This document shows positions 4,114 through 42,307 of a stretch of 64,000 bases of DNA, one piece after another. The translations under genes were made by a program, and so were the position numbers. The notes beneath the pieces are model-generated. The model made no database searches. It worked only from the letters and a program-made list of their open reading frames with translations, and had not been told where the DNA came from. Source of the DNA: Deltaproteobacteria bacterium (GTDB lineage Bacteria > Desulfobacterota > Binatia > Binatales > Binataceae); the NCBI GenBank assembly GCA_027317185.1, contig DAHVFB010000006.1, forward strand, positions 593 through 64,592, read 5' to 3'. Each line of letters opens with the position of its first letter. The stretch's first letter is position 1.

Positions 4114-4116
4114 AGC

Positions 4117-4569: not shown

Positions 4570-4578
4570 GAGCTTACC

Positions 4579-16607: not shown

Positions 16608-16687
16608 CCCGTTCATCTCCGTCGGCGCTTCCGTGCGCGCCCCGCATCTGGTGAGATGCTTATCCCGGCGATCCGGCGAACCATCAC

Positions 16688-27949: not shown

Positions 27950-28954
27950 TCAGGATACGTAATGGCGAACCATACGCCATGAATCCTTCAGATTTTTGCC
28001 GAAATCGAGCGCCACCGTACCCTCGAAGCCTGAATGCAGCTTACAATCGCGGCATCGAATGTCCTGCTTGGTGCGGTAGTACTCCCAATCGGTTGCTTCG
28101 TGCAGTTCCTGAAAGGTTTTGTAATGACCGTTGGTAATCAGATAGCAGGGTCCCTTCCATCCGCGCGGATTACGCGTGACAGTGGTCCATGGACTGCACA
28201 ACAGGTCGCGGTCGCCGGCCAGATAGTCCAGGTAAATCGGCGTATTGATTATTTTGTAATCGTCAGCCAACTTGCGGACCTTTCTGAACTTAAACGGCAT
28301 CTCTTCCTTTTTCATGTAGAGATCGTCGTTGTTGAGCACCTGGTAATGATAACCGGGCGTCAACAGCATTCCATCGACCCCGAGGCCGTTCAAAAAGGCG
28401 ATCAACTCTTCCAGTTCTTCCCCGCTGGTTTCGCGGAAGACCGTGGTGTTGGTCTGCACCCGATAGCCCTTTTCCTTGAGCATCTTGATCATTTTGACTG
28501 CGATATCGAAATGACCCTGGCGATCGGTGACGCGATCGTTGGTCTCGCGCATCCCATCGATATGGATGTTGAAACTCAGATGCTTGTCGGGCCCGACCTG
28601 CTTGACGAAGCGATCCAGCAGGATTGCGTTGGTGCAAATCTGAACGTGACGATGCTGCTCGTCGATTAGGCGCCGGGTCAGCGGCACGATATGCTTGTAC
28701 ATCAGCGGTTCGCCGCCGCAGATCGAGACGATTGGCGCGCCGGCTTCATTGGCGGCGGTCACCGCATCCTCCAGCGGCATCATGTCGCGGATGGTGTCCT
28801 TATATTCAACGATTCGCCCGCATCCGACGCAGGCCAGGTTGCAAGCGTGCAGCGGTTCGAGCATCAGCACCAGCGGAAAATATTTTTCACCCTTACGTTT
28901 CATCCGGCCCATGTAACGGCCGAGATCAATCATCAATTTGAGCGGCATTCGCAT
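27950..28954 (-). CDS. hpnH: adenosylhopane synthase, radical SAM protein HpnH
   Basis: CxxxCxxC cluster (HACNLACVGCGRI). Size and C-terminal extension are typical of HpnH. It lies in an hpn locus. Confidence 0.88.
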   Translation of the reverse strand: MRMPLKLMIDLGRYMGRMKRKGEKYFPLVLMLEPLHACNLACVGCGRIVEYKDTIRDMMPLEDAVTAANEAGAPIVSICGGEPLMYKHIVPLTRRLIDEQHRHVQICTNAILLDRFVKQVGPDKHLSFNIHIDGMRETNDRVTDRQGHFDIAVKMIKMLKEKGYRVQTNTTVFRETSGEELEELIAFLNGLGVDGMLLTPGYHYQVLNNDDLYMKKEEMPFKFRKVRKLADDYKIINTPIYLDYLAGDRDLLCSPWTTVTRNPRGWKGPCYLITNGHYKTFQELHEATDWEYYRTKQDIRCRDCKLHSGFEGTVALDFGKNLKDSWRMVRHYVS

Positions 28955-28985: not shown

Positions 28986-29621
28986 TCAGGCGACCGCCTG
29001 ACCGTCGGCGCGGCTACCCTGTCCGGACTCGCCGAACAACCATTCCCGGACCATCGTGAGGGCGTTCTCGGGATTCAGCGCCGAGTCACGCATAAACAAA
29101 AAGTCGATCAGAAAGCCATTGAGGGCGGAGAGCAGAAACGCGGCGGCACTCTCGGCCGTGTAACCGTGGGCGCACGATCCTTTTTGCTGAGCCTGAGCCA
29201 GCAGACTGGTCAGCAGATTGCGATATCCCGTATAAAGCTGCAGCACCTGCGATCCCAGGTTTTCACCCCGATGCTCATCGTGCAGCAGTTGCGCCAAAAA
29301 GAATCGCACTGAGTTGGCATGGTCGCGGACGAACAGCAGATACATTTCAACCAGCTTCAGGATCTGCGCTCGCTCATCCAGCTCAGTCTCTTCTCCGAAA
29401 TCGATAAAATAGGGCTCCAGGAGGCGGTTGAGCACCGCCATGAACAGATCTTCCTTGGTCTTGAAATGCCAGAAAATGAGCGCCTTGCTGACCCGCGCCT
29501 CGCGCGCAACTTCGGACATCGAGGTCTCATGGAACCCGCGATCGGCAAACAGGCGCATCGCCGCCCGCATGATTTCATCACGCGAACCTTGTGCCTGTTC
29601 CTGGGGATCGACGGCGGCCAT
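28986..29621 (-). CDS. TetR/AcrR-family transcriptional regulator
   Basis: N-terminal HTH: IMRAAMRLFADRGFHETSMSEVAREARVSKALIFWHFKTKEDLF. It ends 31 nt upstream of hpnH on the same strand. Confidence 0.9.
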   Translation of the reverse strand: MAAVDPQEQAQGSRDEIMRAAMRLFADRGFHETSMSEVAREARVSKALIFWHFKTKEDLFMAVLNRLLEPYFIDFGEETELDERAQILKLVEMYLLFVRDHANSVRFFLAQLLHDEHRGENLGSQVLQLYTGYRNLLTSLLAQAQQKGSCAHGYTAESAAAFLLSALNGFLIDFLFMRDSALNPENALTMVREWLFGESGQGSRADGQAVA

Positions 29622-29723: not shown

Positions 29724-29773
29724 CCACTCGGTCAATAGGTTGAGATTATCCGCTCGGTCAGCAAAGTCAATAG
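29724..29773. promoter_or_regulatory. repeat-rich region upstream of tetR; candidate operator sites
   Basis: C(A/G)CTCGGTCA occurs twice (29725..29734 and 29751..29760). GTCAATAG occurs twice (29731..29738 and 29766..29773). Read on the tetR strand, TTGACT-16 nt-TAATCT is a possible promoter with TGACCGAGCGG inside the spacer. Confidence 0.3.
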
Positions 29774-29823: not shown

Positions 29824-30876
29824 TCAGGAGCGTGCGGCCACGCGAGCCTGTGAAATGATCGCTAGCGTACTCCGCGCTTCGGACTGGTTGGTCATCATGA
29901 TGGAACCGCCGCCGGCCTCGACTGCCGCCTGAAACTCTCGCGCCACCGCCGAGAACCATGCGGCATGGTACGAATCGTCAGGCGCATCGCTGATCGGCAA
30001 ATCATGCCGAGCACCATGGTTTTCGATCAGGCGAACCGCGTCGCCCTCGATCTCAAGAATCGCACGCTCGCCGCGAATCGAGGCCGCGGTCCGGCGCGTC
30101 GCCGCGCGCCACGACAGATGGATACTCGCTCGCCGTCCCTCGGCGCAGGTCAATTCGAGATCCGCGATCTCCTCGGCCCCGTTGCCATCCTCGCCGGCCA
30201 GTCGCGCCGCGACCAGGCGGGGCGCTGCACCGCCCGTCAGCCATTGCGCGAGGTAGCACGCGTGCCATCCGTGATCGATCAGAATTCCGCCGCCGAGCGC
30301 CGGATCGCGACGCCATCGCCCGCCAGTTCCTTGATCGCCAGCCGGCGCGGTCCGCAATCTTTCGAGTTTGATTTCTTGTAGCTTTCCCAATCTGCCGGAC
30401 TCGATTATTTCGAACGCCTTCCGGTACGCGGGAGCATGCTTCCAGTTATGTACGCACATCAGCACCCGTGAACGGCTCCGTGCCAGTTCGATCAAACTCT
30501 CCAGCTCATCAAGTGAAAGGCACAGGGGCTTTTCAACCAGCACGTGGGCATCGGCTTCGAGCGCCGCGCGCGCCGCCGCGGCGTGGAAGGCAGGCGGACT
30601 GGCGATATCGACAAAATCGGGCCGCTCGCCATCGAGCATCAGATCCAGGTTGTCATATATGCGTACGCCCTTGAGGATACGGAAAGCATGATGACGCCGC
30701 TCGGCGGCCGGATCGCAGATGGCCGCAATTTGAACCTCCGGTTGCGCCAGCCATCCCGGCAAATGGCCCAGCACCGCCATTGCGCCGAACCCCGCTATCG
30801 CGCCACGCCGCTTCACTGATGGAGACACCCCCTTCCATTCCTTCCCCCGCAAAACAGCGGGGAAAGGGTCAGACAC
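29824..30876 (-). CDS. Gfo/Idh/MocA-family NAD(P)-dependent oxidoreductase
   Basis: N-terminal Rossmann domain (IAGFGAMAVLGHLP...), EKP motif (VLVEKPLCLSLDE) and a C-terminal alpha/beta domain. The start codon is uncertain. Confidence 0.8.
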   Translation of the reverse strand: MSDPFPAVLRGKEWKGVSPSVKRRGAIAGFGAMAVLGHLPGWLAQPEVQIAAICDPAAERRHHAFRILKGVRIYDNLDLMLDGERPDFVDIASPPAFHAAAARAALEADAHVLVEKPLCLSLDELESLIELARSRSRVLMCVHNWKHAPAYRKAFEIIESGRLGKLQEIKLERLRTAPAGDQGTGGRWRRDPALGGGILIDHGWHACYLAQWLTGGAAPRLVAARLAGEDGNGAEEIADLELTCAEGRRASIHLSWRAATRRTAASIRGERAILEIEGDAVRLIENHGARHDLPISDAPDDSYHAAWFSAVAREFQAAVEAGGGSIMMTNQSEARSTLAIISQARVAARS

Positions 30877-30891
30877 TATGGCGAAAGGCCG

Positions 30892-31746
30892 TCAGGCAAT
30901 CCATGCGCGCGCCATCGCCTCCAGTTCACGATCGGCGTTATCGCGCGACAACGGCGACGAATTCAGGATCAGGCGATGAGCGCCGGCCTCCCGATATCGT
31001 TCGATCAGATCGCGCGAATTCGGCTTGATCGCATCCATAAATGTCACCGAAATATCGAGCTCCTCGAAGCGGCGCCCGGCTTCTCCGCACATGGTCCTGA
31101 GCTTGCCCAGTTGCGCCTTGAGCGAATCCGGCGGCTGTTCGATCGGCATCCATCCGTCGCCGATCGCGACCACATTCTTGAGCGCGCGATCGCCCGCCGC
31201 GCCGACCAGAATCGGGGGATGCGGTTTCTGGAACGGTTTGGGGTTACATCGAATCGGCGGAAATTTGATGAACTCGCCGCCGAAACTGGCATCCTCTTTG
31301 GTCCACAGCTCTTTCATCGCCCGCACATATTCGCGAACCAATGGCCAGCGCCGCCGGAAGTCGACGCCAAACACCTCGAGTTCGTCAACCATCCAGCCGC
31401 CCCCAATGCCCATCACGAAGCGCCCGTTGCAGTAGTGATCCAAGGTCGCCACCGCCTTCGCCACGTTGATCGGATTATGCTCTGGAACCAGCAGGATTCC
31501 GGTGCCGACTCGCAGTTTGGTGGTAGCGGCCGCGGCCATCGCGACCGTCACAAAGGGATCCGGACAATTTAGATAAAACTCGGGAATACGACCATCGCCG
31601 CGCGGAAACGGGGTGCGGGGCTTGGACGGAATCACCGGATGCTCCGGAAATACCAGCAGATCGAAGCCCAGCGCCTCGCACTTGCGCGCCAGCTCGCTGG
31701 GATGGATCGCGTCGACGGTCATGAACGCCATGATTCCGATTTTCAT
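30892..31746 (-). CDS. LLM-class (probably F420-dependent) oxidoreductase
   Basis: MKIGIMAFMTVDAIHPSELARKCEALGFDLLVFPEHPVIP...MGIGGGW is the short LLM/F420 family pattern. Confidence 0.8.
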   Translation of the reverse strand: MKIGIMAFMTVDAIHPSELARKCEALGFDLLVFPEHPVIPSKPRTPFPRGDGRIPEFYLNCPDPFVTVAMAAAATTKLRVGTGILLVPEHNPINVAKAVATLDHYCNGRFVMGIGGGWMVDELEVFGVDFRRRWPLVREYVRAMKELWTKEDASFGGEFIKFPPIRCNPKPFQKPHPPILVGAAGDRALKNVVAIGDGWMPIEQPPDSLKAQLGKLRTMCGEAGRRFEELDISVTFMDAIKPNSRDLIERYREAGAHRLILNSSPLSRDNADRELEAMARAWIA

Positions 31747-31786
31747 GATTGAGTCCTCGCAGAAGTTTGCAAATCAAAGCTTGGAA

Positions 31787-32194
31787 CTAGCGGTCGAGCA
31801 TTGAGCTTAACTCAGCATTGATCTCTTTCAGTTGTTGATCGAACCGTTCGAGGCCTGCCAGGGTGCGCTCGATCCGAATTGCGCGCGACTCCACCTCGAC
31901 CTCTGTTTCGGGCTGAGTTTGCGCTCCATGATGAGCGGCGGTGATGCCGCGAAAGATTTCCGCGATTTCGTGCATTCGCGCTTGCTGATCGGAACTCAAT
32001 CCGCGCCGACCGAGTGACTTGATATGCGTAAAGAACTCCGTCACCCGGGTGCCGAAAATTTCCTGCGCCTGCAGCAGCAGTACGTCAAGCTTGCGCTGCA
32101 GCTCCGCGTCAGTCGCCACGCTTTGCGCTCCAGTCGAAAAAATCGCCGGCTTGAACAAAGCGTCCCACTCCGGCCGCGGCGGCCGCCGCCGCAT
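31787..32194 (-). CDS. hypothetical, predicted helical/coiled-coil protein
   Basis: ORF only. The long form overlaps the upstream HAD gene by 86 nt. A GTG at 32119 (11 nt overlap, about 110 aa) is more plausible. No family recognised. Confidence 0.35.
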   Translation of the reverse strand: MRRRPPRPEWDALFKPAIFSTGAQSVATDAELQRKLDVLLLQAQEIFGTRVTEFFTHIKSLGRRGLSSDQQARMHEIAEIFRGITAAHHGAQTQPETEVEVESRAIRIERTLAGLERFDQQLKEINAELSSMLDR

Positions 32195-32597
32195 CGATCT
32201 CCTGGTCGCCGACCATGGTCGATATCGCCAAATCGACGCCGTACATCTGCGCCAGCTCGGTGATCATGCCGCCCTTGGGCTTGCGGCATTCGCAGCGGTC
32301 GGCGTCGTCATGCGGACAGATTTGCCAGCCGGTCAAAATCTCGCCAAGCATGCCATCCAGCTCGCCCATCGCATCCTCGACCGCGCTCATCGTGAGTCGC
32401 CCCCGGTTGATGCCGGCCTGATTCGAGACCACGAAGATCAGATGGTCCCGGATCGGAGCAAGCTTTTCGATCACGCCGGGCATAAGCCGGATCGCAATCT
32501 TCCCATCGACCAGCGGGAGCTGACGAGTTTCATCCATCGCGACCAGCGTGCCGACCAGATCCAGGAACAATCCGCGATTGCCAGCATCGTCCGCCAT
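32109..32597 (-). CDS. HAD-IIIA phosphatase, GmhB/histidinol-phosphatase-like
   Basis: VVSNQAGINRG, CPHDDADRCECRKPKGGM and MVGDQEIDAAAA match GmhB-type motifs II-IV and the Zn-loop cysteines. ATG 32597 lies 2 nt after the aminotransferase stop and has the RBS GGGGGAG. Motif I reads FLDLVGTL, not DxDGT. Confidence 0.8.
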   Translation of the reverse strand: MADDAGNRGLFLDLVGTLVAMDETRQLPLVDGKIAIRLMPGVIEKLAPIRDHLIFVVSNQAGINRGRLTMSAVEDAMGELDGMLGEILTGWQICPHDDADRCECRKPKGGMITELAQMYGVDLAISTMVGDQEIDAAAAAAAGVGRFVQAGDFFDWSAKRGD

Positions 32598-32599
32598 AA

Positions 32600-33991
32600 T
32601 CACTCCCCCGCGCGCCAATCCAGATGGTCCCGCACGTGGGCGAAGACCTCGTCGAGAATAGCCACTCCAGCCTCGGCCTGATCCGCGTTGATCACCAATG
32701 GCGGATTGATCCGCACCCGCGGGAAGTAGCCCATCAGGAGCAGCCCCCGCCGCAGAGACTCCTTGAAGATGGCCTCCGTAACCGGCTTGGACAAAGGTTC
32801 TTTGGTTCGCCGATCGCGCACCAAATCCATCCCGAGCAATAATCCACGCCCGCGCACATCACCGACAAATTCGTACTTCTCTTTCAGTCCCATCAAGCGG
32901 TTCAGCAGCAGCTCTCCGATGCGCCGCGAATTCTCGACCAGTCCCTCCTGTTCGATCGTGCGGATGGTGACCCCCACCGCCACCGCCGCCAGCGGATTTC
33001 CGCCGTAACTCGAAGAAGACGCGCTCGGCTTGCCGAACGGTTCGGCCCGTCCTAATTCATCGCTCAACAAAACGCCCGAGACCGGGAAGCCGGAACCCAT
33101 GCCCTTGCCGATCGTAACGATGTCCGGCTCGGTTGCACTATGCTCGACGCCCCACCATTTCCCGGTGCGGCCGAAGCCGGTGATCATCTCATCCGCGATC
33201 AGCAATGCGCCGTTGTCGCGCGCCATCTGCTTGACCGCCGGCATGAAGTCATCGGGCGGAATTACGTTTCCCGCCGTCCCCTGCATCGGCTCCGCGATCA
33301 CCGCCGCGATCGCGCCCGCCGAACTACGCTTAACCTGTTCGCTTGCGAATTCGACACAGAACATGCCGCATTCGGGATAAGTCATTTTGAACGGGCACCG
33401 ATAGCAATCGGCATAGGGCGCTTGATAGCGGCCCGCCATCAGCGGTCCATAGCCCTGCTTCGATTCATCGCCGATCAAACCAAGAACGCCGGCGGTCTTG
33501 CCATGAAACCCGCCCCAGAAACTCACCACTTCGTGCTTTTTGGTCACCGAGCGCGCCAGCCGTAGCGCGGCTTCGACCGCTTCCGCGCCGCCGCTGTAAA
33601 GGTGATGGCGTTTCAGCTTGCCTGGAGCAACCCGGCTCAGCCGCTCAAAGTTTTCCGCGCGCTCGGGGGTGGCGAAGGTTCCCACGATCAGCCGATTCGC
33701 CTGATCGGCCAGCGCTTGCGCCAGGGCCGGATGAGCATGCCCAAGACTGGCGACCGCGACCCCGGCGAAAAAATCCACGTAGGTATTGCCGTCGACATCA
33801 GTGAGCGTGGCGCCCGATCCGCGCTCGAAAGCCAGGCCGGCCAATTGCGAGATACGTTGCCGGCCGGGCGCGAGATAGCGCTCTTCCGCCTCGAATATCT
33901 GTTTCGATTTGGGGCCGGGAATCTCGGTTCGCATCCGCGGAAGGACCGCCTGATGCTCAGTGCTTTGGTTTTTCATCGATCCGCTTTTCAT
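32600..33991 (-). CDS. class-III PLP-dependent aminotransferase (ArgD/GabT-like; HpnO-type function possible)
   Basis: GGFHGKT, ADEMITGFGRTGKWWG and TIGKGMGSGFP (PLP lysine). Size 463 aa. Confidence 0.9.
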   Translation of the reverse strand: MKSGSMKNQSTEHQAVLPRMRTEIPGPKSKQIFEAEERYLAPGRQRISQLAGLAFERGSGATLTDVDGNTYVDFFAGVAVASLGHAHPALAQALADQANRLIVGTFATPERAENFERLSRVAPGKLKRHHLYSGGAEAVEAALRLARSVTKKHEVVSFWGGFHGKTAGVLGLIGDESKQGYGPLMAGRYQAPYADCYRCPFKMTYPECGMFCVEFASEQVKRSSAGAIAAVIAEPMQGTAGNVIPPDDFMPAVKQMARDNGALLIADEMITGFGRTGKWWGVEHSATEPDIVTIGKGMGSGFPVSGVLLSDELGRAEPFGKPSASSSSYGGNPLAAVAVGVTIRTIEQEGLVENSRRIGELLLNRLMGLKEKYEFVGDVRGRGLLLGMDLVRDRRTKEPLSKPVTEAIFKESLRRGLLLMGYFPRVRINPPLVINADQAEAGVAILDEVFAHVRDHLDWRAGE

Positions 33992-34041
33992 AAAGTGCGG
34001 TTATATTATCGAATTCAACGCGGCACTGAATATGAGCGGCC

Positions 34042-34083
34042 TATCGGTAGCGATAAATTTGGGCGATAAATCAGCCCGATAAT
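34042..34083. promoter_or_regulatory. periodic CGATAA repeat array in the 118-nt gap upstream of the aminotransferase gene
   Basis: CGATAA occurs at 34051, 34064 and 34077, an exact 13 nt period. Two copies are the 9-mer GCGATAAAT. There is also the palindrome TATCG-GTAG-CGATA (34042..34055). Confidence 0.3.
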
Positions 34084-34109
34084 TCGGCAACAACGAATGT
34101 TCGCAGCCG

Positions 34110-34925
34110 TCAGCTCTGATCGCGCCTGCGCAGCAATAACATGCATCGCCGGGCGATCGCGCGCGCAGCCTCGACGCGAACCCGGCTGAAACTTGGCCAG
34201 TCATTAAAATCGACTAGCATGATTGAGTTGTCCTGCACGATGGCGTCGCCGCCCCACACCTCGAGACCCAGCGCGGCGGCCGCACGTTCGGCGGCCTGCC
34301 TGAGGCTTTGTTCGGCTTGAAAGGACAGTTGTCCGGTTTCCGGCAGCGCCGCGAAATATTCGCCACCGCTCACCCCGTAAAACTTTACCAATAGACCGGA
34401 CACCGCCTCCTGAACGTATGCCTTGCGGATGCCTCTTTGGACGAACGCGGCAAGTACTGCGTAAATATCCGCCAGCCGATCGACGCGCTGCACATCTTCG
34501 GGACCGAGCGCGTGAAGATCGCCTCGTTTGACGTAGAGCTCATGGGTCGCATCGATCCCCTCGAGACGAGGCTCGGGCCGCGATAAATCGAGCAGTACGC
34601 CGCGCGGCGCCGGTATCCCGGCGCGGGTCAACCCGGCGCCCATCAGATCCCGATAGCAGTTACGAATTGCAAGAGCGGAATTTATCACCAGCGCGCCGGT
34701 TTTCTCGAGGTGGGCCAGCCGTTCCAGCGCATGTTCGCCCTGGCACATCGCCAGCACCAAATTGGCTTTCGCATCGAAATGGGAATCGATCCGCTCGGCC
34801 ATCACAGTGGACGATTCCAATTTTTTTTCGCGTAGCGCCGCGAGGACCGCATCGAGGATCGCCGCGTCGGCGTCGACTTTTCCAGGCGAGAATTGACTCT
34901 CGCGATAGATTCCGAGCACTCGCAT
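34110..34925 (-). CDS. ATP-grasp-fold protein, inositol-phosphate-kinase (ITPK1)-like or RimK-like
   Basis: The C-terminal GLEVWGGDAIVQDNSIMLVDFNDWPSF resembles the ATP-grasp/ITPK1 'G.D.I.....VIDIN.FP.' element. YVKRGD and LVKFYGV strands are also present. ATG 34925 is preceded by AAGG. Confidence 0.5.
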   Translation of the reverse strand: MRVLGIYRESQFSPGKVDADAAILDAVLAALREKKLESSTVMAERIDSHFDAKANLVLAMCQGEHALERLAHLEKTGALVINSALAIRNCYRDLMGAGLTRAGIPAPRGVLLDLSRPEPRLEGIDATHELYVKRGDLHALGPEDVQRVDRLADIYAVLAAFVQRGIRKAYVQEAVSGLLVKFYGVSGGEYFAALPETGQLSFQAEQSLRQAAERAAAALGLEVWGGDAIVQDNSIMLVDFNDWPSFSRVRVEAARAIARRCMLLLRRRDQS

Positions 34926-34935
34926 CGCAAGCCTT

Positions 34936-35697
34936 TCAGCTTCCCTTCTGATCGTCGGAGGCTGGCGCCGGATGGACCGCCTCGCGATCGAAAAGTGCGC
35001 GCGCGGCCTCAAGATCCGCACCTTCGTCGATGTCGATCGCGCCGTCGATCTCGAATGCGCCGAAACGAACTTGCTCCTTGATCAAGAGGGCCAGCAAGCG
35101 GCGCAGCGCATCGAGACGCGCGCCTGCTGCCTGATTTTTGAACTCGAAAATTCGGCGCGGCAGGAAATAGAACCCGGCGGTGACCAGCGTGCTCGCCTCG
35201 CCACCGAGCGCCACAATCGATCCGTTTTTATTCACCGTGGCGAACAACGGACGCCGATCGCCACGCCAGCGCACTACCGCCAGCACCCCGTCGTAAGGTT
35301 TAACCTGCCCTGAGGCGGTTAGCTCCACGGCGGCGTGCGAAAATCGGTCGAGTTCCGATTGCCGCACCATCGAGTCCACCGTCGCCAGTAAAAAACGATC
35401 GCTCTTTATTTGCTCGCCCAGCGCGAACAGCGATTCCATCGAATTTGCCGTATCGCGCACCATGAGGTTCAGAAAATCCGGCAGTCCGATGCCGCGTTCG
35501 TCCAGCATACGCGCGGTTTCCGAATTGACGATCGCCAACACCGATCGCGCCCCGGCCTTTTTCAAAGCCCACGCCTGCCGCACCAGCAACGGCATCTGAT
35601 TGAGCGGCACCAGCGGCTTCGGCAAATTCTCCACCGCAGGACGCAGGCGCTCGCCGAGGCCGGCCGCCAGTATCGCCCCGTCGAACGGCGTTACCAT
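34936..35697 (-). CDS. sugar/alcohol-phosphate nucleotidyltransferase (NTP_transferase family)
   Basis: Canonical N-terminal signature AILAAGLGERLRP....LPKPLVPL. There is a 7 nt overlap with the upstream HAD gene. Confidence 0.8.
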   Translation of the reverse strand: MVTPFDGAILAAGLGERLRPAVENLPKPLVPLNQMPLLVRQAWALKKAGARSVLAIVNSETARMLDERGIGLPDFLNLMVRDTANSMESLFALGEQIKSDRFLLATVDSMVRQSELDRFSHAAVELTASGQVKPYDGVLAVVRWRGDRRPLFATVNKNGSIVALGGEASTLVTAGFYFLPRRIFEFKNQAAGARLDALRRLLALLIKEQVRFGAFEIDGAIDIDEGADLEAARALFDREAVHPAPASDDQKGS

Positions 35698-36452
35698 CGC
35701 AAATCACGTAAATCGGTGATTGAACGAATTAAATAGTCGGCGGCCAGCTCACGATCCTCGATGCCGTCACGGTCTCCAGGAAGCGAATGGCGCAGCCATA
35801 CCGTTCGCAGGCCAAGCCTCCGTGCAGGGGCTAGATCCTTGCCTAACGAATCCCCCACCATCGCGGTGTCGACCGGACCGATCCCCAATTCGCGCATCGC
35901 GATCAGGAACAACGCCGGGTCGGGTTTGAAAATTCCGACCGCGGAAGAATCGACGGCCGCATCGATGAAATCCATGAATCCACATTCATCCAGGATCACC
36001 CGTAAATTGCCATAAAAATTCGACACCACCGCGATTCGATAGCGATCATGTAAATCGCGCAACAGCTCTCGGGTCGAACCCGTGGCCTCGCGCGATTCAT
36101 CGACAAAGCCATCGCAAATCGACCGCTCAAGCATGACTCTGGATGACGGACTTAGACTCGCGAATTCCAGATTATGCTGTGTTGGATTTCGTTGGAGCCA
36201 ATCGAACTGATGATGCACCAGAAAACCGACGATTTCGTCCAAGGCGGCCTGCCGCAGTTCAGCGGAACTGGCGTAACCAAGTTGAGTTGCGTGTGAAAAA
36301 GCACAATCCAGGCGAGCCCGATCGATCGCGACGCCGGCTGCCCGGTAGTGATTGAGAAACCGATCCAGCCAGTGACGCGGCACATCGAGCGTACCACCAA
36401 AATCGATCAGCAAGGCGCGCGGAGGATTCACGAAAATCAGTTTACCAGCCAC
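35691..36452 (-). CDS. HAD-superfamily hydrolase (subfamily IA-like)
   Basis: Motif I LLIDFGGTLD, motif II VVSNF, and motifs III/IV K...MVGDSLGKDL. GTG start. Confidence 0.75.
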   Translation of the reverse strand: MAGKLIFVNPPRALLIDFGGTLDVPRHWLDRFLNHYRAAGVAIDRARLDCAFSHATQLGYASSAELRQAALDEIVGFLVHHQFDWLQRNPTQHNLEFASLSPSSRVMLERSICDGFVDESREATGSTRELLRDLHDRYRIAVVSNFYGNLRVILDECGFMDFIDAAVDSSAVGIFKPDPALFLIAMRELGIGPVDTAMVGDSLGKDLAPARRLGLRTVWLRHSLPGDRDGIEDRELAADYLIRSITDLRDLRW

Positions 36453-36610
36453 ACTGGACGTATAAATAGGCAGTGATTAATTAGCGATTATGCAGTTTTA
36501 ACCGGCCTCAAGCCAAAGATACAGGGATTTCTTTCGCTTTTTGCCTGAATTTCCATGTCTATTTTAAAAACCTGGTTGACAAAACCTCAGCACTCTCATT
36601 GACTAGGACG

Positions 36611-36624
36611 GACCGCTCGGTCAG
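36611..36624. promoter_or_regulatory. candidate TetR-type operator in a divergent promoter (12-mer shared with the tetR upstream region)
   Basis: CCGCTCGGTCAG (36613..36624) is identical to 29750..29761. It is embedded in the near-palindrome GACCG-CT-CGGTC (36611..36622). ATTGACT (36598..36604) also recurs near tetR on the opposite strand. Confidence 0.3.
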
Positions 36625-36688
36625 AAGAGAGCTAACGATGCGATTCTTCAATACGTTCGCTTCAGAAAAATTGTTTTAGCCTACTTCG

Positions 36689-37885
36689 ATGGAGACTGTA
36701 CTTGTAAACAGCACATCCGGTCTTGGCGCCACCGAGGTATATGGCCGACCGTTACTCGAACGGATATTGATTCAATGTGAGCGCGTCGGCATCACCCGTT
36801 TCTTGGTTGAGATCGGCCCCGCCGGTCGCGGCGCCACTATCGAGGCGATGGGTAGTTTTGAGAATCGAGACGGAATTTCCCTGGTGGAGTCTTTCCAGTC
36901 CTTATTGGATGGTTCAGGTGTGATCGCTTCTGAACCGTGTCTGATGATCTCCGATAACGTCGTTTTCAGCCGGGCGCAACTGGATGCATTGTTGAAGTTG
37001 CACGCGACCAATCCCTCGGGGGTGACTCGGTTGCGCAGCCAAGACGATCACGCCGAGGGGATTTTCGCGACTGGCCCGCTAACCCACCTGTTGACGGATT
37101 TAGAATCACATTCCGCGCTCGAATTCAAAAACTCTTATCTCCCGGTCGCCCTTAGGAACTCACCGTCCAATCTGGGAGAAGCGCAACGGAGGCTGGCTCT
37201 TGCGCTGCGTAATGAAACCGCCGACAGCGACGGTATCCTTGCCCGCGCCTTCGATCGAAGACTTTCGTGGCGGCTGAGTTCCCGGCTGGCGAATACGCGA
37301 ATCACCCCCAATCAGGTGACCCTGGCGAACACTGCGATCGGCCTCGCGGCCGCCGCCATGTTTGCCGCGCCAGGCTACTGGTGGCGATTGTGGGCTTCGC
37401 TTTTGTTTCTCGTATCGGTGACGATCGACGGTGTCGACGGCGAGGTGGCGCGGCTGAAAATGGCCGAGACCCCGTTCGGCGGAATGCTCGATAAGATCAC
37501 CGATAACATCGTCAATGTCGCGATTTTTATCGGCCTGACGCTTGGATGCTATCGAATTAGCGGCAGCAAATCCTATTTTTATCTGCTTGGAATTCTTCTG
37601 ATTGGATTTGGCTTCTGTGCTATTTCCGTCGCTCGCGCTTTCAGCGTGAGCGGCCCTCGCGCCGAACAATTTATCGGCAAGGTCGATCGGGTAACGGGCC
37701 GGGATTTCGCCTATATATTGGTAGTGTTGGCACTTGTGAATCGGCTGCCTATATTTGCCTGGGGGGCAGCATTTGGTACTTACGTATTTGCATTTGTGCT
37801 GTGGATACTTACAGACAGATATTCTTCTTACGATGGGAGCCGTTCACGATCGCATGAAACCCCTGCGGTCGCGGAGGAAGTATGA
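36689..37885 (+). CDS. fusion protein: degenerate nucleotidyltransferase-like N-domain + CDP-alcohol phosphatidyltransferase (IPCT/DIPPS-like architecture)
   Basis: The C-terminal half carries the CDP-alcohol motif DGVDGEVARL(x8)GGMLDKITD and about 6 TM segments. The N-terminal 170 aa keeps the NTP-transferase fold pattern (GLG...YGRPLLERILIQCERVGITRFLV) but lacks the GxGxRL...K signature. Confidence 0.85.
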   Translation: METVLVNSTSGLGATEVYGRPLLERILIQCERVGITRFLVEIGPAGRGATIEAMGSFENRDGISLVESFQSLLDGSGVIASEPCLMISDNVVFSRAQLDALLKLHATNPSGVTRLRSQDDHAEGIFATGPLTHLLTDLESHSALEFKNSYLPVALRNSPSNLGEAQRRLALALRNETADSDGILARAFDRRLSWRLSSRLANTRITPNQVTLANTAIGLAAAAMFAAPGYWWRLWASLLFLVSVTIDGVDGEVARLKMAETPFGGMLDKITDNIVNVAIFIGLTLGCYRISGSKSYFYLLGILLIGFGFCAISVARAFSVSGPRAEQFIGKVDRVTGRDFAYILVVLALVNRLPIFAWGAAFGTYVFAFVLWILTDRYSSYDGSRSRSHETPAVAEEV

Positions 37886-39207
37886 AAAAGCCGCGTATCC
37901 TATTGATTCAGCCAACTACCGTTCATCTGGACGGCACTCCGCATAAAACCCGTTGGCGCTTGATCATGGGGCTGATGATCCCCCTGATGGCCGGGCTGAC
38001 GCCACCCGAATACGACGTCACGCTGTGCGACGAGCGCCTGGAAGATCTCGATTTCGACGCCAAATGGGACCTGGTGGGGATGACAACCACTATCGGCGCC
38101 TCACTGCGCGCGTATCAACTCGGCGATGAGTACCGCAAGCGCGGCATCCCGGTTGTCATGGGAGGATTCCACGCCACCCTCCAGCCCGAAGAGGCGCTAA
38201 AGCATGCCGACGCGGTGGTGCAGGGAGAAGCCGACCTGGTTTGGGCGGGACTATTGCAGGATTGGCAAGACGGAAAGCTCAAGCGGATTTATAAGGCCGA
38301 TAAGCTGCACGATTTGAAGAATCTGCCGCGTCCGCGCCATGAACTGCTGAAGCTGAACCGTTATCTGTTCAAATGCGCACCGATTCAGGCCAGCCGCGGA
38401 TGTCCCTATCGCTGCTCGTTCTGCGAAATTCCAGTCTTTTACAATGGCAGCTACCGCACGCGGCCGATCGAAGACATCGTCGAGGAAATGAAACAGGTGA
38501 TGCAGGTTACCGGCATCCGCCGCTTCCAGTTCATCGACGACCAGATCACCGGCAAACATAAGTTCGCCAAGGAGTTGTTCAAGGCGCTAATACCCCTGAA
38601 CATCCGCTTTTCCTGTCTATGGACGGTCAACTCCAACCATGACGAGGATTTGTTGGAACTGGCGGCGAAAGCCGGCGTGTTCCACGTCAATATCGGGGTC
38701 GAATCGATCAGCCAGGAAAGCCTGCTGTCGATGAATAAAATTCAGAACCACGTCGATCAGTACAAGAAACTGCTGGCGCGGCTCGAGAAGCACGGCATCT
38801 ATTATTCGCTGAATTTCCTGTTTGGCCTCGAAGAGGACCATCCGGGCATTTTCGACGACACGCTCAAATTCCTGCATGAGGTTAAGGCGCCCGAGGCCTT
38901 TTTCAATACGGTCACGCCCCGGCGCGGCACCCCGATGCGCACCATGCTCGAGAACGAAGGCCGCGTCATCATCCCGGATGCCGACATGTACACCAATAAC
39001 TTTCGCTGCATGTTCGTGCCGAAGAAAATGTCTCCGCAGCAGGTCGAAGAGGGCGTTTGGCGCTGCACCAAGGAATTCTATTCGCTCAAATCGATGTTTA
39101 AGCGGCTGCTGATGCCGCCCGGTAAGTTCACCTGGCAGGGACTTACGGAGAATATGTTGTTCTACTATGGCGCCAAGCGGCAGGTCGATCCGGTGGATTA
39201 TTATTAG
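37882..39207 (+). CDS. B12-binding-domain radical SAM protein (class B)
   Basis: N-terminal cobalamin-binding-like domain (DLVGMTTTIGASLRAYQLGDEYRKRGIPVVMGGFHAT) and rSAM cluster ASRGCPYRCSFCEI. ATGA overlap with the upstream gene. Confidence 0.9.
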   Translation: MKKPRILLIQPTTVHLDGTPHKTRWRLIMGLMIPLMAGLTPPEYDVTLCDERLEDLDFDAKWDLVGMTTTIGASLRAYQLGDEYRKRGIPVVMGGFHATLQPEEALKHADAVVQGEADLVWAGLLQDWQDGKLKRIYKADKLHDLKNLPRPRHELLKLNRYLFKCAPIQASRGCPYRCSFCEIPVFYNGSYRTRPIEDIVEEMKQVMQVTGIRRFQFIDDQITGKHKFAKELFKALIPLNIRFSCLWTVNSNHDEDLLELAAKAGVFHVNIGVESISQESLLSMNKIQNHVDQYKKLLARLEKHGIYYSLNFLFGLEEDHPGIFDDTLKFLHEVKAPEAFFNTVTPRRGTPMRTMLENEGRVIIPDADMYTNNFRCMFVPKKMSPQQVEEGVWRCTKEFYSLKSMFKRLLMPPGKFTWQGLTENMLFYYGAKRQVDPVDYY

Positions 39208-39241
39208 ACGCCACGCTGACGCACTTTCCTAATTAACCCGC

Positions 39242-39284
39242 GGGAGCGGAAAGCGATGCAGGCTTTCCGCTCCCGTTTTTGTTT
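39242..39284 (+). terminator. Rho-independent terminator of the CDP-alcohol transferase/rSAM unit
   Basis: Perfect 13-bp stem GGGAGCGGAAAGC / GCTTTCCGCTCCC with a 7-nt loop, followed by TTTTTGTTT. It starts 35 nt after the stop codon. Confidence 0.85.
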
Positions 39285-39288
39285 GCGG

Positions 39289-39312
39289 CAAAAACCTTCC
39301 CAAAAACCTTCC
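39289..39312. repeat. perfect tandem duplication of a 12-mer (CAAAAACCTTCC x2)
   Basis: Read directly from the sequence: 39289..39300 equals 39301..39312. Confidence 0.9.
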
Positions 39313-39460
39313 GTAGATACTCCATCCATCAGGGCGTATCCGCCACTCGATATCCACTCGCGTAACTTGGCCCGTCAATTGCGTTCTCGAACGATCAAAA
39401 CTCGGGACGAGAATTCGATGGCACATCATTCCCCATCGAAAGGGGGATCAAGGAGATCAG

Positions 39461-39781
39461 ATGGATACGCAACCCTTCAAAGAAGCAGTTGATGAGACCC
39501 GCGAGTATTTGCAAAACGGCGATGTTGGGGAAAGATTCACGCGTATCGGCCGCGACGCCTTCAACTATATGAGTTCGACCTCCCGGATGCGTGAAAACCC
39601 ATTCCCGGCGATCGGGCTCGCCTTCGGAGCCGGCTACTTTTTGGCCAAAATTTTGCGCGGCTGGACATTTCCAATTCTGGTCGGATTCGGGATTGGCGCG
39701 CTCGCGCGGCAGACCTCGGAGGGATCGATATCGAAGCGCGCAGGCTCGATGATCGATACTTCCGCCGCTTCGAAATTTTGA
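39461..39781 (+). CDS. DUF883/ElaB-YqjD-like membrane-anchored small protein
   Basis: RBS AAGGAG 6 nt upstream. Helical N-terminal part, then ENPFPAIGLAFGAGYFLAKIL, which resembles the ElaB/YqjD C-terminal anchor. Confidence 0.5.
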   Translation: MDTQPFKEAVDETREYLQNGDVGERFTRIGRDAFNYMSSTSRMRENPFPAIGLAFGAGYFLAKILRGWTFPILVGFGIGALARQTSEGSISKRAGSMIDTSAASKF

Positions 39782-39895
39782 TCGCCGGGGAAGCAGGCTA
39801 GATGCGCGCACGGACCGCTAGGGAATTTGGGAAAGTTATCTTAATGGCAGGGTCGCTGAATTGTTGTGGTGCCTTATGCCTGAAAAGTCGCGCGA

Positions 39896-42307
39896 TCAAA
39901 CCTTTCGTCTTTTGTCTGTGAGCGCTACCGCATAGTCGCGGCCTTCCCAGCGCGATTCTTCCGGCCAGTAGAAGGTGAAGCGCAGCGGCGAGCGATCGCC
40001 GGGCGCGGTTTCGAGATCGACGTAATCGATTCCGATCGCAGTGCCGCTGGAATGCGTGTCGTGAACCGGATTCCACTCACCCTGGCCCCAGTGTAGCGTG
40101 AAGGGTTTGGCCGCGATGATTTTGAGTCGGGTGCCGGCCACAATCAATTTGACCTGCCGGTTGGCTTTCCACACTTCGATCTTCTTCCGTTCGCCATTGT
40201 CCTGAAAGTGACGAACCACTTCCGGAATCAGATCGAACACCTGGCCGTCGCCGACCGAGCGCACCAGCTTGATATACTCGGCATGCGCCCACATCAGCGG
40301 CATCGCACTGCCGGTCGGACCGCCATAGGCAAGCAGCGCCTCGGGGTTGTCGGGTAAATCCCAAATCTGCTCGGGCAGCAGCCGAGTCGCAGTGGCGAAA
40401 CGTTCCAGAGCGCTGACGTATGGACGCGCATCGCGCCCCGCCGCCAGTTCATAATGGCCGCGCTCGCCGCATAGCAACGGCCACGGCCGTCCCACGCCCC
40501 AAACGTCGAATCCGCCGCCATCATCGCGCTGTCCATAGCCATCATGGGTATAGCGCAGCCAGCACGGACCGGCCGGGAAATCTTTTTTCAAAACCGCATC
40601 GACCACCCGCAGCGAATCTTCGATCAGCGGGTCGCCGGCTTTGCGGATTCCATAGCGCACCAGCTCGAGAAATCCCGCATCCACGATTTCCGCCGCCGGG
40701 AACAGCACGCGTTCTCCCGACTGGCGATTATGCACCAGTACCTGGCCGTGATCGGGATCTTCGTCGGGCTGATTATCGCCCGCGGCGATCGGATTGATGC
40801 GCACGAAGTGGCGGCTGATCCCGGGGACCAGGAAGCCCTGCCGAGTGACCGTCCAGGGTTCGATATGCCGATCGAGGAAATCGGCGTAGTCCTCGAGAAA
40901 TCCGGCGGTGGCTTCATCGCCGCGATCGCGGGCGAAGGCGGCGGCGCAGATCAGGGCGGCAATATTGCTCGCCAGGGTCGAGGGCGAAAATCCGCTGTTC
41001 TCTTCCCATCGATCCTGCGGCGTAACCGGCCCCTGTTCGATCAGGTATCGCGCCCCCGCGCGTACCATTGGATAGGGATCGAAGTCCGCCAGTCCGCCCC
41101 CGCGCGACAGACGCCACGCGAGCATAATCGGGAACGCCACTTCGTCGAGTTGGATTCCACGCCAGTATGGAATGCCATTGGTCCAGAAATTCTGCGGAAA
41201 CCCGCCATCGGCCTGCTGTGAGCAGGCAAGATAGATCAGCGCGCGCAGCGGTGTGACCAGATCGCCGGCCGCCAGCAGCCCGGTGGCGCTGTTCACCATG
41301 TCTCGCGTCCAGACCAGATGATAGCCGCCGAGGTCATCATCGCTCTTGATCTCGCCCCATGGGATGCTGAGCGAGGCGATCAACGCCCCCGGATAAACTT
41401 TATCCTCATGGGCCAGCAGCAACTCGATACTCTTGTGAAACAGCGCGCCGCCGTCGTTGGTGAACTGGGCCATCGGAATGAAATCGCGGCAGGCGCGATG
41501 CCATTGCTCCTGAAAGCGCTGCTTGTGCTGCGCATATGGAATACCCAGCGACTGAAAAAGCGTGGTCACGGATCGATGGAGGCTGTGTCCAAATGAAAGT
41601 CCGATGGTGAATTCACGCTGTTGCCGCAGATCGATCTCGCCGGTAAGCGCGATGTTACCGTCGGAGGCGGACGCGAATAGGTGGTTGAGTTTGAAATCGC
41701 CCGCCAGATCGTCCCATCCGTCACTGGTTCCGACGTAACCGCACGATCGCGCCACGAACGGCACGGTGGCCGCCAACGACAACCAGGTCTCGCCTTTATG
41801 CGCGATCAGGAAATCACGCCCGGCAATCGAGGCGCAATTGCCGTTGTTGTGCCATCCCCCAACTTCCAGATGCGGGGCCAGCAGCACGTAAAGGTGCAGC
41901 TTTGGCAGCAAATCGTCATCGGCTTCGAGCCGCGAATGGATTAACAAGCAGGGTTGATGCGGGTCGGCGATGGCCTCGCTGATGATTCGATAACGGCCCT
42001 CGCGATCGGCGTTGACAATGCGCACGCCCAGTCCGCATGAATCGAAATATTCGGTGCGCGACTCCATATGACGATGGACATCATGGAAAAAAGTTTTGCC
42101 GTCAGTGACCAGAAACTGCAGGTCGCGGACCTGCGGGCGGTCGATTGTCGGATAGTAAATTTCGCTTACCACCCCACCCGAAACGGTGAACCAGAGGCGG
42201 CTCGAAGTCGAATACGCGGTACTGACTACATCCTTCGCGCTATGAGTCCAACGCGGCGCGATGCCGGGTCCGCCAAAGGCTTGCGGTGAATTCTGGATGA
42301 TTGCCAC
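39896..42307 (-). CDS. glycoside hydrolase family 15 glucoamylase/glucodextranase-like enzyme
   Basis: Bacterial glucoamylase N-domain (GGPGIAPRWTHSAKD...YYPTIDRPQVRDLQFLV) and an (alpha/alpha)6 catalytic domain with LVWTRDMV and RWEENSGFSPSTLA. Size 803 aa. Confidence 0.9.
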   Translation of the reverse strand: MAIIQNSPQAFGGPGIAPRWTHSAKDVVSTAYSTSSRLWFTVSGGVVSEIYYPTIDRPQVRDLQFLVTDGKTFFHDVHRHMESRTEYFDSCGLGVRIVNADREGRYRIISEAIADPHQPCLLIHSRLEADDDLLPKLHLYVLLAPHLEVGGWHNNGNCASIAGRDFLIAHKGETWLSLAATVPFVARSCGYVGTSDGWDDLAGDFKLNHLFASASDGNIALTGEIDLRQQREFTIGLSFGHSLHRSVTTLFQSLGIPYAQHKQRFQEQWHRACRDFIPMAQFTNDGGALFHKSIELLLAHEDKVYPGALIASLSIPWGEIKSDDDLGGYHLVWTRDMVNSATGLLAAGDLVTPLRALIYLACSQQADGGFPQNFWTNGIPYWRGIQLDEVAFPIMLAWRLSRGGGLADFDPYPMVRAGARYLIEQGPVTPQDRWEENSGFSPSTLASNIAALICAAAFARDRGDEATAGFLEDYADFLDRHIEPWTVTRQGFLVPGISRHFVRINPIAAGDNQPDEDPDHGQVLVHNRQSGERVLFPAAEIVDAGFLELVRYGIRKAGDPLIEDSLRVVDAVLKKDFPAGPCWLRYTHDGYGQRDDGGGFDVWGVGRPWPLLCGERGHYELAAGRDARPYVSALERFATATRLLPEQIWDLPDNPEALLAYGGPTGSAMPLMWAHAEYIKLVRSVGDGQVFDLIPEVVRHFQDNGERKKIEVWKANRQVKLIVAGTRLKIIAAKPFTLHWGQGEWNPVHDTHSSGTAIGIDYVDLETAPGDRSPLRFTFYWPEESRWEGRDYAVALTDKRRKV

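Follow-up and report, generated by a model that had tools for sequence, protein, structure and literature searches.

Within a 64,000-nucleotide (nt) stretch of the genome of an uncultured soil bacterium of the Binataceae (Binatota; contig DAHVFB010000006.1; hereafter the window, to whose positions all coordinates refer), two divergent gene units between 29824 and 39207 form a cluster that we propose, with confidence about evenly balanced, to encode a cytidine diphosphate (CDP)-alcohol pathway of the Kennedy type. Its product would be an inositol-derived, most likely amino-substituted (inosamine), phosphodiester-linked head group of a membrane lipid. The Binataceae system elaborates, in a lineage-specific way, a cluster found across several phyla, the simplest form of which was earlier proposed as a CDP-inositol lipid pathway. 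To our knowledge inositol lipids are rare in bacteria, and we know of no amino-inositol lipids. If the proposal is correct, an unseen class of zwitterionic cyclitol phospholipids would exist in several abundant lineages of soil and sediment, most of them uncultured (Binataceae, Gemmatimonadota, Verrucomicrobiota, Ignavibacteriota, Myxococcota and Desulfobacterota), with relevance to membrane biology, environmental lipidomes and possibly hopanoid biomarkers.

Composition and conservation of the cluster

Domains were called by Pfam and NCBIfam profile searches, with NCBIfam scores read against the family cut-offs in bits. An earlier reading of this DNA (the original prediction) had made nine domain calls, and all nine were right under this annotation. 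The cluster comprises the following features.

32109-32618 (likely start 32597), minus strand: HAD-IIIA phosphatase, GmhB/histidinol-phosphatase-like (TIGR01662, 66.7 bits against a cut-off of 44.6)
32600-33991, minus strand: class-III (omega-type) pyridoxal phosphate-dependent aminotransferase, Aminotran_3 (PF00202, E = 4e-96)
34110-34925, minus strand: ATP-grasp protein of an uncharacterised family (fold from AlphaFold2 and Foldseek; no Pfam match)
34936-35697, minus strand: nucleotidyltransferase, LicC/IPCT-like, MobA-type fold (NTP_transf_3 PF12804 and PF00483)
35691-36452, minus strand: HAD-IA hydrolase, a phosphatase or phosphomutase (PF00702 and PF13419)
36453-36688, no strand: divergent promoter region, with an operator-like site CCGCTCGGTCAG at 36613-36624
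36689-37885, plus strand: membrane CDP-alcohol phosphotransferase with an N-terminal degenerate nucleotidyltransferase-fold domain (PF01066)
37882-39207, plus strand: B12-binding-domain radical S-adenosylmethionine (SAM) enzyme (PF04055 and PF02310)
29824-30876, minus strand: Gfo/Idh/MocA NAD-dependent oxidoreductase (PF01408 and PF22725)
30892-31746, minus strand: F420-dependent LLM-class oxidoreductase of the TIGR03619 family (250 bits against 167)
31787-32194, minus strand: small open reading frame (ORF) of 135 amino acids, probably not a gene (no family match)

For comparison we took one locus per species, as the best 80 of 471 related loci, almost all of them labelled Binataceae or 'delta proteobacterium'; gene frequencies were counted in the 53 of those Binataceae loci that have full flanks, each from another species. 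A seven-gene core, consisting of the HAD-IIIA, aminotransferase, ATP-grasp, nucleotidyltransferase, HAD-IA, transferase and radical SAM genes, is complete in 49 of the 53. The core genes co-localise far beyond chance and the module recurs in other phyla; a lack of conserved co-localisation, which would have spoken against the original prediction, was not seen. The HAD-IIIA gene, itself present in 49 of the 53, is a core gene in Binataceae only, and the transferase-radical SAM pair stands alone in two loci. The Gfo/Idh/MocA dehydrogenase gene lies near the cluster in 25 of the 53 and is accessory there. The LLM gene was found in 30, frequently at low identity suggesting paralogues: it occupies the same position in a locus labelled Ca. 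Binataceae (L001), and elsewhere its matches are only about 42% identical and possibly paralogous. It is a variable accessory gene, not part of the core. Since the small ORF, previously described as a gene for a small helical protein, overlaps the HAD-IIIA gene by 86 nt and is without a homologue across about 240 related loci, we do not count it as a gene. The gene set first described is thereby upheld in its seven-gene core, to which neither the variable LLM gene nor the doubtful small ORF belongs.

Conservation within the core is uneven. Across Binataceae the radical SAM enzyme has a median identity of 88.6%, the transferase has one of 49%, and the HAD, nucleotidyltransferase and ATP-grasp proteins lie at 44-54%. 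The G+C content is 0.53-0.55 in the plus-strand unit and promoter region (36001-40000) versus about 0.60-0.62 in flanking genes. The window also holds further LLM-class oxidoreductases and an RND efflux permease (10236-11234, 45507-46778 and 47611-50868), which are unlinked to the cluster in related loci.

Related clusters in other phyla and a probable link to inositol

Related clusters occur in at least seven bacterial phyla besides that of the Binataceae and fall into two types, A and B. Type A, in Bacteroidota (Bacteroides, Prevotella, Parabacteroides, Dysgonomonas, Muribaculaceae, Sphingobacterium, Dyadobacter and Runella), has the order myo-inositol-phosphate synthase (MIPS), nucleotidyltransferase, ATP-grasp, CDP-alcohol transferase, an optional LPG_synthase_TM gene, and HAD; a Parabacteroides locus (L144) reads MIPS, nucleotidyltransferase, ATP-grasp, CDP-alcohol transferase, HAD. 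Type B runs HAD, nucleotidyltransferase, ATP-grasp, class-III aminotransferase, Gfo/Idh/MocA dehydrogenase, together with a CDP-alcohol transferase and usually LPG_synthase_TM. It is carried by about 40 Gemmatimonadota species, by Verrucomicrobiota, Ignavibacteriota, Bdellovibrionota, Myxococcota, Elusimicrobiota and Desulfobacterota-type metagenome-assembled genomes (MAGs), and by the cultured Desulfoferrobacter suflitae DRH4, in whose locus (L239) the genes run HpnJ-like, HAD, nucleotidyltransferase, ATP-grasp, aminotransferase, dehydrogenase, LPG_synthase_TM, OEP (outer-membrane efflux protein) and MlaC. The Binataceae cluster is type B with a second HAD gene and a radical SAM gene of its own, arranged as two divergent units. 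In almost every locus the HAD-IA gene accompanies the nucleotidyltransferase and ATP-grasp genes, and it is part of the module in all phyla. The dehydrogenase gene is the regular, adjacent partner of the aminotransferase gene in other phyla, and the window's aminotransferase is 47-57% identical to cluster-linked homologues in six of them.

The neighbours of these clusters point to inositol and to lipids. Of the first 80 non-Binataceae loci, 44 have a MIPS gene no more than 10 kb from the ATP-grasp gene; with type B it was seen in a Bdellovibrionales locus (L085), in L097 and in seven Ignavibacteriota loci. The cyclitol-phosphate logic of the original prediction thereby gains independent support. 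The flippase-like LPG_synthase_TM gene is present in about 29 of the 80 non-Binataceae loci and in most Gemmatimonadota loci, downstream of the transferase in many clusters of types A and B, and genes for MlaC, MlaD, MlaE/F and outer-membrane efflux proteins (OEP) adjoin the cluster in several loci.

The type A module corresponds to a system already in the literature. In B. vulgatus and Prevotella, a putative alternative inositol lipid cluster beside MIPS consists of BVU_RS13095 (nucleotidyltransferase), BVU_RS13105 (phosphatidyltransferase) and BVU_RS13115 (HAD), with an LPG-synthase-like neighbour; formation of CDP-inositol and its transfer to diacylglycerol were proposed and stated to be unconfirmed (Heaver et al. 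2022, PMC9246714). Bacteroidota whose sole module is type A make phosphoinositol-dihydroceramide, and the ATP-grasp gene is not mentioned in that paper (Heaver et al. 2022, PMC9246714). Counterparts of the nucleotidyltransferase, the CDP-alcohol transferase and the HAD protein are all in the window, and the two systems are linked by the ATP-grasp family and by gene order, the ATP-grasp gene lying between the nucleotidyltransferase and transferase genes in the Bacteroides, Parabacteroides and Prevotella loci. With the ATP-grasp gene included, both systems share nucleotidyltransferase, ATP-grasp, CDP-alcohol transferase and HAD and the same proposed Kennedy-like CDP-inositol logic, and the ATP-grasp protein, which lacks a Pfam family, is added as a missing component to the alternative inositol lipid pathway proposed for gut Bacteroidota. 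However, the window's proteins are only 23-35% identical to those of Bacteroidota, its transferase has an extra N-terminal domain, MIPS is not adjacent, and an aminotransferase, a dehydrogenase, a second HAD and a B12 radical SAM enzyme are added. Literature searches found no later functional work on the alternative cluster or on CDP-inositol, and no description of type B. The claim of an undescribed pathway therefore needs dividing: the nucleotidyltransferase, CDP-alcohol transferase and HAD part matches the published proposal, whereas the literature searches turned up no description of the aminotransferase-containing cluster.

Some related clusters carry further genes. A Sulfotransfer_3 gene is present in the two most divergent Binataceae-like clusters (L078, 3139-4446; L083, 8479-9822) and an O-methyltransferase gene in the first, which hints at sulfated or methylated head-group variants. 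Gemmatimonadota type B clusters have a conserved ORF of 360-430 amino acids, without a Pfam or NCBIfam family, directly upstream of HAD (L161, 7484-8572; L152, 5279-6568; L156, about 7640-8600; L140, about 4030-4935); it may be a pathway component.

Enzymes and proposed pathway

Domain identities, the conserved gene set, gene fusions, linkage to MIPS and lipid-transport genes in other phyla, and the shared operator-like motif were observed directly; the chemistry set out below is inferred. A stand-alone MIPS encoded elsewhere in the genome would supply inositol 3-phosphate, whose phosphate a HAD enzyme would remove or reposition. The Gfo/Idh/MocA dehydrogenase is proposed to oxidise one ring carbon, giving an inosose, and the class-III aminotransferase to turn this into an inosamine. 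As a kinase, the ATP-grasp protein would re-phosphorylate the cyclitol to inosamine phosphate; the nucleotidyltransferase would then form the CDP-cyclitol (CDP-inosamine), from which the AF2299/DIPPS-like membrane transferase would pass the phospho-cyclitol to a lipid alcohol, either diacylglycerol or possibly a bacteriohopanepolyol. The B12-type radical SAM enzyme may tailor the head group by C-methylation, ring contraction or deoxygenation. The order of kinase, cytidylyltransferase and CDP-alcohol phosphotransferase is that of the Kennedy pathways (LicA, LicC and choline/ethanolamine phosphotransferase), and LicC (1jyk) is the best solved relative of the nucleotidyltransferase by sequence. 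Unlike in those pathways, the putative kinase here has an ATP-grasp rather than a choline-kinase fold, and the alcohol is probably a cyclitol.

The transferase carries PF01066 (58 bits against a cut-off of 22) and a multi-helix membrane domain, and shows the CDP-alcohol phosphotransferase motif D-G-x2-A-R-x7-8-G-x3-D-x3-D; this catalytic motif, DGVDGEVARLKMAETPFGGMLDKITD, is invariant across 25 homologues. By sequence it matches AF2299 (4o6m) at E = 3e-20. A structural model (predicted local distance difference test, pLDDT, 84) matched AF2299, IPCT-DIPPS (4mnd) and phosphatidylinositol-phosphate (PIP) synthases over its full length in Foldseek, and its N-terminal domain matched the cytidylyltransferases IspD, TarI and CobY. 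The N-terminus reads VLVNSTSGLGATEVYGRPLLERIL, and since the G-x-G-[TS]-R signature is missing in all 25 aligned homologues we regard the domain as degenerate with its fold kept, as had been predicted. Equally in line with the prediction, the protein is not an ordinary PgsA or PssA (26.6 bits against 109.1 for TIGR00560; 25.4 against 107 for TIGR00473). Its nearest characterised relatives are AF2299, IPCT-DIPPS and the archaetidylinositol-phosphate and PIP synthases, with family cut-offs far from reached.

This relationship raises the alternative that the product is a soluble, possibly amino-substituted compatible solute akin to di-myo-inositol phosphate, with CDP-inositol transferred to inositol phosphate and the product dephosphorylated by HAD. 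Like IPCT/DIPPS of A. fulgidus (AF0263, 4MND) and AF2299 (4O6M), which serve di-myo-inositol-phosphate synthesis and are its best matches in sequence and structure, the window's transferase combines a cytidylyltransferase fold with a six-helix CDP-alcohol transferase bearing the catalytic motif. IPCT/DIPPS (NF041135) is the best NCBIfam match of the transferase, two phosphatases are present, as dephosphorylation of such a product would need, and MIPS stands alone in Binataceae. However, the NF041135 score is 75.5 bits against a cut-off of 580 and covers the transferase region only. The N-terminal domain of the window's transferase lacks GxGxR, and the active nucleotidyltransferase is encoded apart from it. 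Di-myo-inositol phosphate is characteristic of hyperthermophiles rather than of mesophiles living in soil. Moreover, the genomic context points to a lipid: because homologous clusters have flippase-like LPG_synthase_TM, Mla and OEP neighbours, and because Bacteroidota with only the type A module make inositol lipids, a lipid is favoured over a solute, to which we give little credence. Both products had been entertained in the original prediction, and the lipid has emerged as the better supported of the two.

In the separate nucleotidyltransferase the GxGxR motif is intact, confirming that this is the canonical member of the pair. Its gene and that of the HAD-IA enzyme overlap by stop and start codons, and we propose that it is a cytidine triphosphate:phospho-alcohol cytidylyltransferase. 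Two other pathways were considered for these enzymes and set aside. A heptose nucleotide-sugar pathway, an idea that came from the GmhB-like HAD, lacks an isomerase or sugar kinase in the cluster, and the HAD-IIIA gene is specific to Binataceae. For a phosphonate pathway, the PhpK and Sden_1164/1168 matches of the radical SAM enzyme and nucleotidyltransferase fall far under the cut-offs and no such genes recur among the related loci.

The ATP-grasp protein of the window has 271 amino acids, the form common to its homologues. It has no Pfam match at E <= 0.01, and a single-sequence search against PDB sequences returned nothing at E <= 10. Its AlphaFold2 model (pLDDT 85.4) superposes on D-Ala-D-Ala ligases (Foldseek E = 1.7e-13, template modelling score about 0.7), from which we conclude that the three-domain ATP-grasp fold is real. 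The protein is not a ligase of the RimK or glutathione-synthetase type, which would have spoken against the original prediction: TIGR00768 scores 27.9 bits against 143.4, over residues 61-144 only. An exhaustive profile search gathered 1,236 representative clusters of the family at 50% identity, with the signature [IV]DxNDWPSF. Members are fused to the nucleotidyltransferase (NTP_transf_3) in six clusters, including Planctomycetota and Thermoanaerobaculia, to both HAD and NTP_transf_3 in an Elusimicrobiota protein (P0345, 802 amino acids), and to CDP-OH_P_transf in P0363 (700 amino acids). On account of these gene fusions, we assign HAD, nucleotidyltransferase, ATP-grasp and CDP-alcohol transferase to one pathway. 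In a Desulfobacterales MAG (L092, 9989-12145) ATP-grasp and class-III aminotransferase form a single 718-amino-acid ORF, which may be a real fusion or an assembly frameshift; in a related locus (L093) the two genes are separate but overlapping.

We consider it somewhat more likely than not that the ATP-grasp protein is a kinase making the phospho-alcohol for cytidylylation. LicCA is a kinase-cytidylyltransferase fusion, and the fusion of the ATP-grasp protein to the nucleotidyltransferase, its commonest partner, is a parallel to it. ITPK1 is an ATP-grasp inositol-phosphate kinase with a D-x-N metal-site motif, whereas E-x-N is typical of ATP-grasp ligases; the homologue alignment has D-x-N. 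The competing assignment is a ligase that would join a carboxylate, through an amide bond, to the amine that the aminotransferase produces, giving an acylated or peptidyl amino-alcohol phosphate head group that would not require inositol. Such a scheme resembles the aminotransferase, ATP-grasp amidoligase and HAD logic of serinol- and ethanolamine-phosphate amidation in the Campylobacter capsule. It would suit the best Foldseek matches of the model, which are D-Ala-D-Ala ligases and DcsG, the weak RimK, MptN and LysX matches, and the position of MIPS outside the Binataceae neighbourhood. The apparent fusion to the aminotransferase in the Desulfobacterales MAG can be read in favour of either function. 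However, the ATP-grasp gene is equally conserved in the type A clusters of Bacteroidota, which have no aminotransferase and so no amine to ligate, and this, with the fusion partner and the metal-site motif, makes this amide-forming scheme distinctly improbable in our view. LysW/RimK-type amino-carrier chemistry and F420 or methanopterin glutamylation were rejected, as they are represented by ATP-grasp matches of only 15-28 bits and are contradicted by the nucleotidyltransferase and CDP-alcohol transferase fusions. With a kinase, the presence of both HAD and kinase in type A might make sense only if the ring position of the phosphate changes, by analogy with the kinase-then-phosphatase order of the heptose pathway, a point we offer as speculation.

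The dehydrogenase and aminotransferase are proposed to act as an inositol-to-inosose dehydrogenase and in the inosose-to-inosamine step, respectively. The former scores 60.8 bits against a cut-off of 355 for iolG (TIGR04380), which together with PF01408 and PF22725 denotes superfamily membership only; the aminotransferase reached no NCBIfam equivalog cut-off, and PDB sequence searches with these two proteins and the radical SAM enzyme gave generic relatives only. Streptidine biosynthesis includes an inosamine kinase step. In hygromycin A biosynthesis, neo-inosamine is made by Hyg18 (MIPS), Hyg25 (phosphatase), Hyg17 and Hyg8 (aminotransferase), of which Hyg17 is a PF01408 dehydrogenase with verified myo-inositol dehydrogenase activity (PMC10949010). 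Pairing of PF01408 with class-III aminotransferases is about 12 times rarer than pairing with those of DegT type (PMC10949010). The hygromycin A and streptidine pathways share with the window the same set of activities in the proposed order of phosphatase, Gfo/Idh/MocA dehydrogenase, aminotransferase and kinase. They differ in that the window's aminotransferase is of class III, versus the DegT type of known inosose aminotransferases such as StsC, and in that its product would be CDP-activated and passed to a membrane transferase, whereas theirs is built into an antibiotic. A role for the aminotransferase as HpnO, in aminobacteriohopanetriol synthesis, is disfavoured, as the gene travels with the ATP-grasp, nucleotidyltransferase and HAD genes in phyla without hpn genes nearby.

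The radical SAM enzyme belongs by domain make-up to class B, the cobalamin-dependent class, as first predicted: PF02310 scores 35.5 bits against 32.1 and PF04055 69.8 bits, and the CxxxCxxC motif reads CPYRCSFC. The ATGA coupling of its gene to that of the transferase was confirmed as a stop/start overlap. Its best solved relative is the diol dehydratase AprD4, which works without cobalamin. Equivalog cut-offs were far from reached for HpnJ (82 against 578 bits), HpnR (56 against 650), BchE (112 against 481) and PhpK (92 against 600). A 42%-identical homologue of the Binataceae-type enzyme is encoded in L083, and B12-type radical SAM genes recur near the clusters, HpnJ-type in some lineages and Binataceae-type in others, which suggests a common optional tailoring of the cyclitol. 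HpnJ catalyses a carbocycle-forming rearrangement. A second, smaller radical SAM gene (about 325 amino acids, no family cut-off reached) recurs near type B clusters in Desulfobacterota-type genomes (L083, 7448-8419; L093, 7978-8970; L239, 14676-15644; L092, about 19949).

Several observations weigh against an inositol-derived, amino-substituted lipid head group. In the transferase's nearest characterised relatives, inositol phosphate serves as the acceptor and not as a CDP-activated donor. Known inosose aminotransferases, such as StsC, are of the DegT family, and the window's enzyme is of class III. About half of the Binataceae loci have no dehydrogenase gene close to the cluster, and the flippase-like gene is absent from the Binataceae clusters among the loci compared. 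The ATP-grasp model is structurally nearest to D-Ala-D-Ala ligases; ITPK1 is not among its top 50 Foldseek matches, and a profile of 28 homologues matched ITPK1/ITPK4 chains over the C-terminal 47 residues only, at a non-significant E = 0.3-0.5, where those residues match a D-Ala-D-Ala ligase at E = 0.1. Literature searches found no lipid of the proposed kind. Finally, MIPS is found neither in the window nor in 83 of the 84 Binataceae-type loci (L001-L084), L077 being the exception.

Since MIPS is not near their clusters, inositol as the substrate in Binataceae is inferred from the other phyla. The family nevertheless has the enzyme: at least 120 MIPS sequence clusters (90% identity level) are 80-99% identical to the L077 protein, and the named organisms among them are all Ca. 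Binataceae or 'Deltaproteobacteria', a label also used for such genomes. In Binataceae genomes MIPS stands alone, with no PIP-synthase-type genes beside it; in one genome it shares a 3.27-Mb contig with the cluster. Because MIPS is widespread in the family, we conclude that Binataceae can make inositol phosphate, of which the cluster would be the obvious consumer.

Hopanoid neighbourhood and shared operator-like motif

The cluster abuts a hopanoid locus with the tetR-hpnH gene order originally described. The alongside genes are hpnK, hpnA, hpnE, hpnD, hpnC, dxr, shc, a zinc alcohol dehydrogenase gene, a farnesyl diphosphate synthase gene, hpnH and tetR. The two nearest are listed here; hpnH is given as genomic context, and no membership of the pathway is claimed for it.

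28986-29621, minus strand: TetR-family regulator, between hpnH and the cluster (operator-like site at 29750-29761)
27950-28954, minus strand: hpnH, adenosylhopane synthase (TIGR03470, 370 bits against a cut-off of 225)

Identity to the Ca. Binataceae-labelled locus L001 is 89% for hpnH and 94% for the radical SAM enzyme. The 12-mer CCGCTCGGTCAG said to be shared between the tetR upstream region and the cluster is real, at 29750 and 36613, and is included in an operator-like motif, C[CT]GNNCGGTCA, that is often an imperfect palindrome. This motif occurs upstream of tetR in 22 of 28 loci (2.46 per kb) and in the divergent region between the HAD and transferase genes in 30 of 71 loci (1.09 per kb), versus a background of 0.029 per kb, which corresponds to an enrichment of 37- to 85-fold. 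Since the motif is common to both regions, the TetR protein beside hpnH probably controls the cluster's divergent promoter.

These observations bear on a variant in which the chemistry is the same and the acceptor is an extended hopanoid (bacteriohopanetetrol, ribosylhopane or aminotriol), giving a phosphodiester-linked aminocyclitol-hopanoid co-regulated with hpnH by TetR. In its favour are the conserved, enriched motif and the 20 of 53 Binataceae loci in which tetR and hpnH directly adjoin the cluster. Elsewhere, the type B operon of the Desulfobacterales MAG L092 directly follows HpnJ, HpnA and HpnH genes, all over equivalog cut-offs. A true HpnJ gene lies immediately upstream of the type B operon in L116, and HpnJ-type radical SAM genes (at least 40% identity) likewise abut the cluster in L238, L239 and L241, the carriers named being HR30, Desulfoferrobacter (L239) and a Myxococcales MAG. 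Hopanoid producers are already known to place an aminocyclitol on bacteriohopanetetrol via the glycosyltransferase HpnI, the deacetylase HpnK and the B12 radical SAM enzyme HpnJ. That cyclitol ether pathway also yields an aminocyclitol lipid head group with a B12-domain radical SAM step; it differs in forming an ether from a glycoside, as against a phosphodiester from a CDP-alcohol transferase, and here no glycosyltransferase would take part. However, 33 of the 53 Binataceae loci have no hpnH nearby, and adjacency within one family may reflect shared ancestry. Most type B and all type A loci are without hpn genes nearby, including, within 8-10 kb, the type B loci of about 40 Gemmatimonadota species, Ignavibacteriota, Verrucomicrobiota and Bdellovibrionota. 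Bacteroidota with the same module make inositol sphingolipids or glycerolipids and lack hopanoids, and we know of no phosphodiester-linked hopanoid.

On balance the hopanoid link is suggestive, and we consider a hopanoid acceptor unlikely, yet the leading alternative to the main proposal. Slightly less likely still is the fuller version in which the CDP-activated aminocyclitol phosphate would be passed to the extended-hopanoid side chain under TetR co-regulation with hpnH, with the radical SAM enzyme in a role analogous to that of HpnJ. The hopanoid acceptor of the original prediction thus retains its recurrent hpn neighbours as support and is countered by the occurrence of the cluster in lineages without hpn genes nearby. 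Were it correct, it would provide the first example of a hopanoid head group that is phosphodiester-linked and phospholipid-like, and its products would be unrecognised biomarkers of abundant soil Binataceae.

In the window itself, the ORFs across 15744-16730 and 16613-18431 include hpnK, with no hpnI or hpnJ found among the unassigned ones beside it; one hpnK neighbour weakly resembles the carotenoid hydratase CruF (52 bits against a cut-off of 400). Further copies of C[CT]GNNCGGTCA lie at 22680, 25668, 17568, 24580, 40846 and 44684, of which one precedes the start of hpnC by about 100 nt and another falls in the first 50 nt of shc. The total of 8 in 64 kb is about 4 times the background density of related loci. 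Given the extra copies near hpnC and in shc, TetR may also control hopanoid genes.

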